Of a stretch of 978 nucleotides of DNA, positions 566-661 are shown one piece after another. Position 1 is the first letter of the stretch. Each line of letters starts with the position of its first letter. The notes beneath the pieces are model-generated. The model did no database searches. It was given only the letters and a program-made list of their open reading frames with translations, and was not told the DNA's origin. A program made the translations under genes and the position numbers. Location: assembly GCF_003334255.1 (NCBI RefSeq), contig NZ_QOWU01000179.1; one strand, 5' to 3'. Source of the DNA: Escherichia coli. GTDB lineage: Bacteria > Pseudomonadota > Gammaproteobacteria > Enterobacterales > Enterobacteriaceae.

Positions 566-661
566 TTATTCCCAGATCTTCAGGGCTAACCAGATAAGCG
601 CACTCACCTGAAATATCACCCATACAGTGGCGATGGTGAGTATTGCTTTTACATTCTTCAT
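566..661 (-). CDS. candidate 31-aa hydrophobic mini-protein (single predicted transmembrane helix); not in the ORF track
   Basis: Minus-strand ATG at 659-661 to TAA at 566-568 encodes MKNVKAILTIATVWVIFQVSALIWLALKIWE. About 24 consecutive mostly hydrophobic residues are flanked by Lys. It starts 12 nt after the stop of the 41-aa mini-ORF. No convincing Shine-Dalgarno is present (upstream is aaagcgaaaacctt), so translation is uncertain. An ORF this short can occur by chance. Confidence 0.3.
   Translation of the reverse strand: MKNVKAILTIATVWVIFQVSALIWLALKIWE

Follow-up and report, generated by a model that had tools for sequence, protein, structure and literature searches.

An open reading frame of 31 codons (ORF31) that closely follows a gene for a 41-aa membrane peptide in an Escherichia coli prophage raises the question of whether it is a gene in its own right or a stretch of spacer RNA that happens to be open. 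The original prediction, made from a 978-nt piece of E. coli DNA (hereafter, the window), held that ORF31 may be a second mini-ORF for a membrane peptide and that the two peptides could form a toxin and modulator or a two-peptide membrane complex. The first half of this proposal has gained moderate support from comparison of relatives; the proposed joint function has not been supported. Judging from sequence comparisons, we think that ORF31 is rather probably a real, unannotated gene for an accessory membrane mini-protein in the early (Pe/cox-side) lytic operon of a P88-like prophage.

Operon context and organization of the locus

The window is part of the cox-side early operon of a P88-like (Peduoviridae, P2-family) E. 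coli prophage (Table 1). In E. coli DETEC-S792, it is found in a P2-family prophage beside the integrase gene, a repressor-type helix-turn-helix gene, and cox, inside a long leftward operon that extends from cox to the replication endonuclease gene with its genes in one orientation. Phage P88 (Xuanwuvirus, Peduoviridae) has the same succession of cox, DUF4761, DUF4754, and mini membrane gene; read along the minus strand, the window runs from the DUF4754 gene through the 41-aa gene, 12 nt, ORF31, 105 nt, and the 76-aa gene to the 3'-5' exonuclease gene. A literature search for DUF4754 found no paper mentioning it, the papers that mention Xuanwuvirus do so in passing and are silent on these genes, and a megablast search of the window against the phage collection returned no match.

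Table 1. Features of the 978-nt window
Feature	Coordinates	Strand	Remarks
3'-5' exonuclease gene (Rv2179c-like), 5' part	1..230	(-)	
76-aa hypothetical gene	230..460	(-)	phrog_22206, function unknown; always downstream of ORF31
Intergenic stretch	461..565	(-)	palindrome AAGGCATTCATGCCTT (495-510), T-run, and AGGAG (468-472) serving the 76-aa gene
132-nt segment	543..674	(-)	spacer + ORF31 + 24 nt; absent from the syntenic E. coli 2013C-3033 prophage; ends ambiguous by 1-2 nt
ORF31	566..661	(-)	31 codons + TAA; predicted single-helix hydrophobic peptide; relatives' alleles 31, 33, and 34 aa
Spacer AGCGAAAACCTT	662..673	(-)	12 nt, A-rich, no Shine-Dalgarno; separates the 41-aa gene stop from the ORF31 ATG
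41-aa membrane mini-gene	674..799	(-)	WP_000021704.1; phage P88 gp07 'membrane protein' family; ATG overlaps the DUF4754 gene TGA
DUF4754-family gene, 3' part	796..978	(-)	5' end beyond the window

ORF31 lies on the minus strand, which the original prediction had left unstated, with its ATG at 661-659 and its TAA at 568-566; its product would be MKNVKAILTIATVWVIFQVSALIWLALKIWE (31 aa). The predicted distance of 12 nucleotides from the 41-aa ORF is exact (673-662), and the 41-aa ORF (799..674, TAA at 676-674) shares its reading frame with ORF31 in all haplotypes. Readthrough of the TAA (window 566-676) would yield a two-helix protein of 77 residues; none of the alleles seen is fused. We considered such a fusion of the two ORFs, but the stop is TAA followed by A, a context expected to terminate efficiently, and it is kept in all haplotypes.

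Two further observations concern the surroundings of the locus. The 76-aa gene has a weak PADLOC match to AbiEi (E 0.009, 14 bits), which is probably due to chance. In one copy (L001, 16314-16909), the neighbors of the integrated prophage are ppa and the chpSB toxin-antitoxin genes, and its integrase lies toward chpS.

Predicted product of ORF31

The peptide is, as had been proposed, hydrophobic along almost its entire length: its GRAVY value is 1.27, the best 19-residue Kyte-Doolittle window scores 2.15, and AlphaFold2 models it as one helix spanning residues 2-30 (pLDDT 92.7), flanked by Lys2 and Lys5 on the N-terminal side and by Lys28 near the C terminus. The length of ORF31 is by itself uninformative, because an ATG-initiated ORF that reaches 31 aa or more turns up on the sense strand in 24% of dinucleotide-preserving shuffles of the 213-nt gap. 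An equally hydrophobic ORF, in contrast, arose in 0/5000 dinucleotide-preserving shuffles of the same gap; with both strands counted and the hydropathy threshold set at 2.0, a hydrophobic segment appeared in 0.6%. All variants of ORF31 retain a 19-residue hydropathy window of at least 2.0.

By the positive-inside rule, the peptide would span the inner membrane in an N-in/C-out orientation, since both lysines of the pair lie at its N terminus. The 41-aa peptide, with its C-terminal tail RxxxxK...DKRRK, would insert N-out/C-in and thus be antiparallel to the ORF31 peptide.

Distribution and annotation

Among 5426 complete E. coli genomes, the window finds matches in 31, always on the chromosome; in 21 of these, the match covers 80% or more of the window. 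ORF31 DNA is present in 21 genomes at 95.7-100% identity. ORF31 also occurs in nine IMG/VR contigs, which were reached independently via the 76-aa gene and via the 41-aa gene, and in 13 metagenome contigs recovered by a pattern search, with the exact product encoded in six contigs. The pattern demanded conserved codons 17-28, so disruption there could not show in those 13 loci, and the search contributed only one new haplotype pair. RefSeq/PGAP leaves the ORF31 stretch empty in 21/21 genomes and annotates the 41-aa gene; ORF31 is called by some metagenome gene callers and in one GenBank TPA record (DAU42316.1).

Relatives outside this set did not emerge. A scan of GTDB species-representative genomes revealed none, a tblastn search with the peptide gave chance-level matches only (E of at least 3) against phages and none against plasmids, and the only cluster that a profile search recovered from 1.84 billion representative proteins is that of ORF31 itself. 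PHROGs, NCBIfam, PADLOC, and Pfam hold no meaningful match. By these searches, ORF31 is an orphan of one phage lineage.

Tests for selection on the reading frame

We read the copies in 10 of the 21 E. coli genomes, the 9 IMG/VR contigs, and the 13 metagenome contigs, which together yielded 18 DNA haplotypes (about 520 nt) and 8 peptide variants; the other 11 E. coli genomes are 99.5-100% identical, with no gaps. The ATG, the open frame, and the 12-nt spacing, whose length is invariant, are kept in all 18 haplotypes. Setting synonymous against frame-breaking changes across relatives, the check that had been suggested for this locus, revealed an excess of synonymous changes and only frame-compatible indels; loss of the frame in relatives, which would have spoken against a gene, was looked for, and the frame is kept throughout.

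Twelve of the 24 variable sites in ORF31 are synonymous, all at codon position 3, and 12 are nonsynonymous, mostly exchanges among V, L, I, A, T, S, and C, with N3H, L8H, T9N, and E31G as exceptions. The L8H allele is common and places the histidine at the helix edge. Read in any of the other five frames, the sites would include just 2-8 synonymous changes. Against an expected fraction of 0.22-0.26, the 12/24 synonymous sites correspond to a binomial p of 0.003-0.01; a permutation that keeps mutation types gives p 0.019, or 0.009 when a no-stop requirement is added. Nei-Gojobori dN/dS is 0.18 relative to the most diverged allele (L029/L020), with a Fisher p of 0.004; this allele was retrieved via a neighboring gene and not via ORF31. 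A stricter permutation of its 15 differences reaches p of only 0.06-0.08, the value for at most 7 amino acid changes being 0.08. The two indels are a 3-nt in-frame insertion that adds an Ile after Lys5 and a 1-nt insertion at codon 29 of 31 that turns the tail IWE into NLGII without affecting the helix. The density of variable sites is not lower in ORF31 (0.22) than in the spacer (0.17) or in the 41-aa gene (0.15). Together, these comparisons provide moderate support for purifying selection on the ORF31 peptide.

Proposed initiation without a Shine-Dalgarno sequence

The original prediction noted that no Shine-Dalgarno sequence could be recognized, and energy calculations bear this out: the anti-Shine-Dalgarno duplex of ORF31 is worth -1.8 kcal/mol, versus -5.4 to -11.6 kcal/mol for 11 of 12 annotated operon genes and a background median of -2.5 kcal/mol. 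None was found when the sequence was sought in all ORF31 alleles (-0.1 to -2.9 kcal/mol). The start region (-30 to +33) folds at -2.6 kcal/mol, and among 13 operon starts only that of hyp195 is weaker (-2.0 kcal/mol).

Because no allele has a Shine-Dalgarno sequence, we propose that ribosomes ending at the TAA of the 41-aa gene reinitiate at the ORF31 ATG 12 nt further on; alternatively, 30S subunits could load on the open, A-rich region that precedes ORF31. In either case, an unstructured, A-rich start region would aid initiation, and ORF31 would be expressed at a low level, coupled to its neighbor, whenever the early operon is transcribed. The site of action would then be the inner membrane of the host, early in the lytic cycle after induction or infection, and the peptide would plausibly modulate membrane energetics or a membrane protein of the host.

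Alternative explanations

The absence of a Shine-Dalgarno sequence from every allele is also the reason why an untranslated spacer stays the main rival. By that account, which we consider possible but rather unlikely, ORF31 is a chance ORF, and the 132-nt segment is spacer or leader RNA without a product under selection. Several properties of the locus are as expected of such a spacer: frames of this length are common in shuffled sequence, variable sites are as dense as in the neighboring spacer, the segment is dispensable, no homolog exists beyond the lineage, and PGAP leaves ORF31 unannotated; the weakest of the selection tests stops at p 0.06-0.08, and the first ~25 nt of ORF31 are homologous to a noncoding spacer of P88-like relatives. 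Such an ORF would not, however, be expected to encode a hydrophobic helix that none of 5000 shuffles reproduced, nor to show an excess of synonymous third-position changes that is specific to its own frame, a dN/dS of 0.18, two indels that are both compatible with the frame, and an ATG and open frame in all haplotypes. These features favor a translated ORF31. The same periodicity bears on the idea that the segment acts as RNA, be it a structured element, an attenuator or terminator, or a control of 76-aa gene translation, with ORF31 incidental. In a consensus fold, CUGAAG (codons 27-28) does pair with a UUUCAG that stands immediately before the AGGAG of the 76-aa gene, and a hairpin and U-run follow ORF31, but the fold z-score of the 246-nt region is just -1.8, and RNAalifold on seven alleles returns a covariation term of +0.13 kcal/mol, with several pairs broken and compensatory change in two pairs only. 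The scan reports no terminator-like site, Rfam gives no match at E up to 10, and the 2013C-3033 prophage, which has no such segment, keeps the same hairpin and the ribosome-binding site of the 76-aa gene. Since an RNA element would also leave the three-base periodicity of substitutions unexplained, we regard it as very unlikely.

We give slightly less credence still to a type I toxin, or a toxin/modulator pair with the 41-aa peptide, in which ORF31 would depolarize the membrane under the control of an antisense RNA or of the neighboring peptide. Type I toxins have fewer than 60 aa, one transmembrane helix, and short extensions, some of their systems are located in prophages, and the size and single-helix architecture of ORF31 fit this description (PMC12648545). 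Yet ORF31 is 12 nt behind another gene in a long operon and not on a structured mRNA of its own. The window contains two promoter-like sites where 1.0 would be expected (748-775, plus; 816-789, minus), and none lies on either strand of the region from about 480 to 700; the computational scan and Rfam searches at E up to 10, which detected no antitoxin RNA or other RNA family, revealed no antisense or divergent RNA antitoxin with its own promoter near ORF31. NCBIfam, Pfam, and PADLOC contain no toxin or defense match, including to the known toxin families (Hok/Gef, Ldr, Ibs, TisB, ShoB, DinQ, Zor, and others). The pair version is further opposed by the dissimilarity of the two peptides and by the occurrence of the 41-aa gene without ORF31 in >95% of the prophages. 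A holin/antiholin or other lysis-cassette peptide was rejected because ORF31 is not part of a late lysis cassette but of the early operon, with cox on one side of it and the replication endonuclease gene on the other.

Relation to the 41-aa gene

The 41/37-aa gene family is present in 508 of the 5426 complete E. coli genomes versus 21 for ORF31, and in about 487 of those 508 (>95% of related prophages) it occurs without ORF31. It is also found in 253 IMG/VR stretches; in 70 of the 80 loci that were read, a short spacer leads directly to a different gene. ORF31 was never found without the 41-aa gene, whereas the 41-aa gene without ORF31 is the rule, which argues against an obligate pair. The suggestion of a toxin with its modulator, or of a two-peptide membrane complex, is thus left without support by these counts, by a syntenic prophage that has no ORF31, by the lack of toxin, defense, or Rfam antitoxin matches, and by the lack of a promoter-like site. 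A tandem duplicate or paralog of the 41-aa gene was likewise considered and rejected: BLASTP produced no alignment between the two peptides at E up to 100.

Phage P88 gp07, annotated as a 'membrane protein', is the 37-aa allele of the first mini-gene. Proteins of the gp07 type (37/41 aa) resemble the ORF31 peptide in their similar size, single hydrophobic helix, phage-borne origin, unknown function, and operon slot, and their genes, like ORF31, are tightly packed against the preceding gene. They differ in having a charged C-terminal tail, from which the opposite topology is predicted, and in that their genes have an SD-like GGGG and overlap the gene before them at ATGA, whereas ORF31 has no Shine-Dalgarno sequence; they are also widespread and annotated by PGAP, and ORF31 is neither.

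The widespread 37-aa allele is the 41-aa allele shortened by a stop at codon 38 (GAT AAA to GAA TAA; window 674-690; L057-L123 around 1010-1030), beyond which the original last codons and TAA can still be made out. In E. coli SCU-106 (NZ_CP053234; L012 874-978, minus), the slot of the 41-aa gene is taken by an unannotated ORF for a hydrophobic 34-aa peptide, MSSTLIIIASWVILLASFVVSYFVVKLLTQYLNL; the ORF and the end of the DUF4754 gene have 4 nt in common. Because this ORF has only the SWVIL motif in common with the 41-aa family, this operon position appears to hold small membrane peptides repeatedly.

Relation to known small membrane proteins

E. coli type I toxins include TisB (29 aa), ZorO, ShoB, and DinQ. 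Like ORF31, these are single transmembrane helices of 20-35 residues with few flanking charged residues (PMC12648545). ORF31 differs from type I toxins in having no promoter of its own, structured leader, antisense RNA, or family match and in its location within a polycistronic early phage operon. Another group, the small regulatory inner-membrane proteins of enterobacteria, is represented by MgtS (31 aa), PmrR (29 aa), and AcrZ (49 aa). Small regulatory membrane proteins act by binding larger membrane proteins, and MgtS, PmrR, and AcrZ share with ORF31 a similar size, a single helix, and a history of being overlooked by annotation pipelines (PMC12648545). Unlike ORF31, which is prophage-borne, confined to one lineage, and without a known partner, they are encoded on the chromosome and conserved across genera, and their partners are known. 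Phage genes of the 'moron' type offer a third comparison, being, like ORF31, discrete insertions (132 nt here) between conserved genes that are variably present in close relatives; classical morons, however, come with their own promoter and terminator, and scans find neither in the ORF31 segment. On balance, ORF31 is best filed as a newly recognized, lineage-restricted, phage-encoded putative single-pass membrane mini-protein.

If translated, ORF31 would be another early-expressed single-helix membrane peptide of a temperate phage that standard annotation has overlooked, and its natural presence/absence variants would allow function to be compared between close relatives. Lacking a Shine-Dalgarno sequence and starting 12 nt past a stop codon, it offers a test case for Shine-Dalgarno-independent, termination-coupled initiation, and it could document a young orphan gene. 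It is a modest find, which touches no long-standing open question and holds no strong surprise for the specialist.

Origin of the ORF31 segment

Flanking genes and downstream spacer are the same in the E. coli 2013C-3033 prophage, from which a clean 132-nt block is missing (window about 543-674). Because close relatives are without ORF31, it would be dispensable for the phage, an accessory gene. A repeat-mediated deletion or a target-site duplication was considered; pairwise alignment revealed no clear flanking repeat at the ends of the indel, only 1-2 nt of ambiguity, and inspection by eye found no terminal inverted repeats there.

In P88-like relatives, the spacer behind the 37-aa gene (TAAATAAGAAAATGTAAAAACAATCC) aligns with the initial ~25 nt of ORF31 (TTATGAAGAATGTAAAAGCAATAC); beyond this point, the relatives continue into a hairpin, TCCGC-loop-GCGGA, and the window lineage into the remainder of ORF31. 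Either the relatives lost the ORF or a recombination junction joined the former spacer to new sequence. A bolder version of the second scenario, which we consider unlikely, has ORF31 as an orphan micro-gene born recently at a mosaic junction between P88-like phages: about 8 codons at its start are homologous to the noncoding spacer behind the gp07-type gene of distant relatives, and the rest is lineage specific. The micro-gene would since have come under purifying selection, and its helix would pair antiparallel with the 41-aa peptide in the host membrane.

Relative to the window, the most diverged allele differs at 15/84 sites in ORF31, versus 5/105 in the downstream spacer and 8/123 in the 41-aa gene; from these differences, the ORF31 block appears to have a history of its own, older or recombinant.

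A last observation concerns the stretch between ORF31 and the 76-aa gene. Its perfect 7+2+7 palindrome is followed ~14 nt later by TCTTTTTT (T-run 474-481, minus), just before the AGGAG. The palindrome is conserved with or without ORF31, and the P88-like relatives have their TCCGC-loop-GCGGA hairpin at the equivalent place. It may be a site of processing, attenuation, or protein binding and is not scored as a terminator by the scan.
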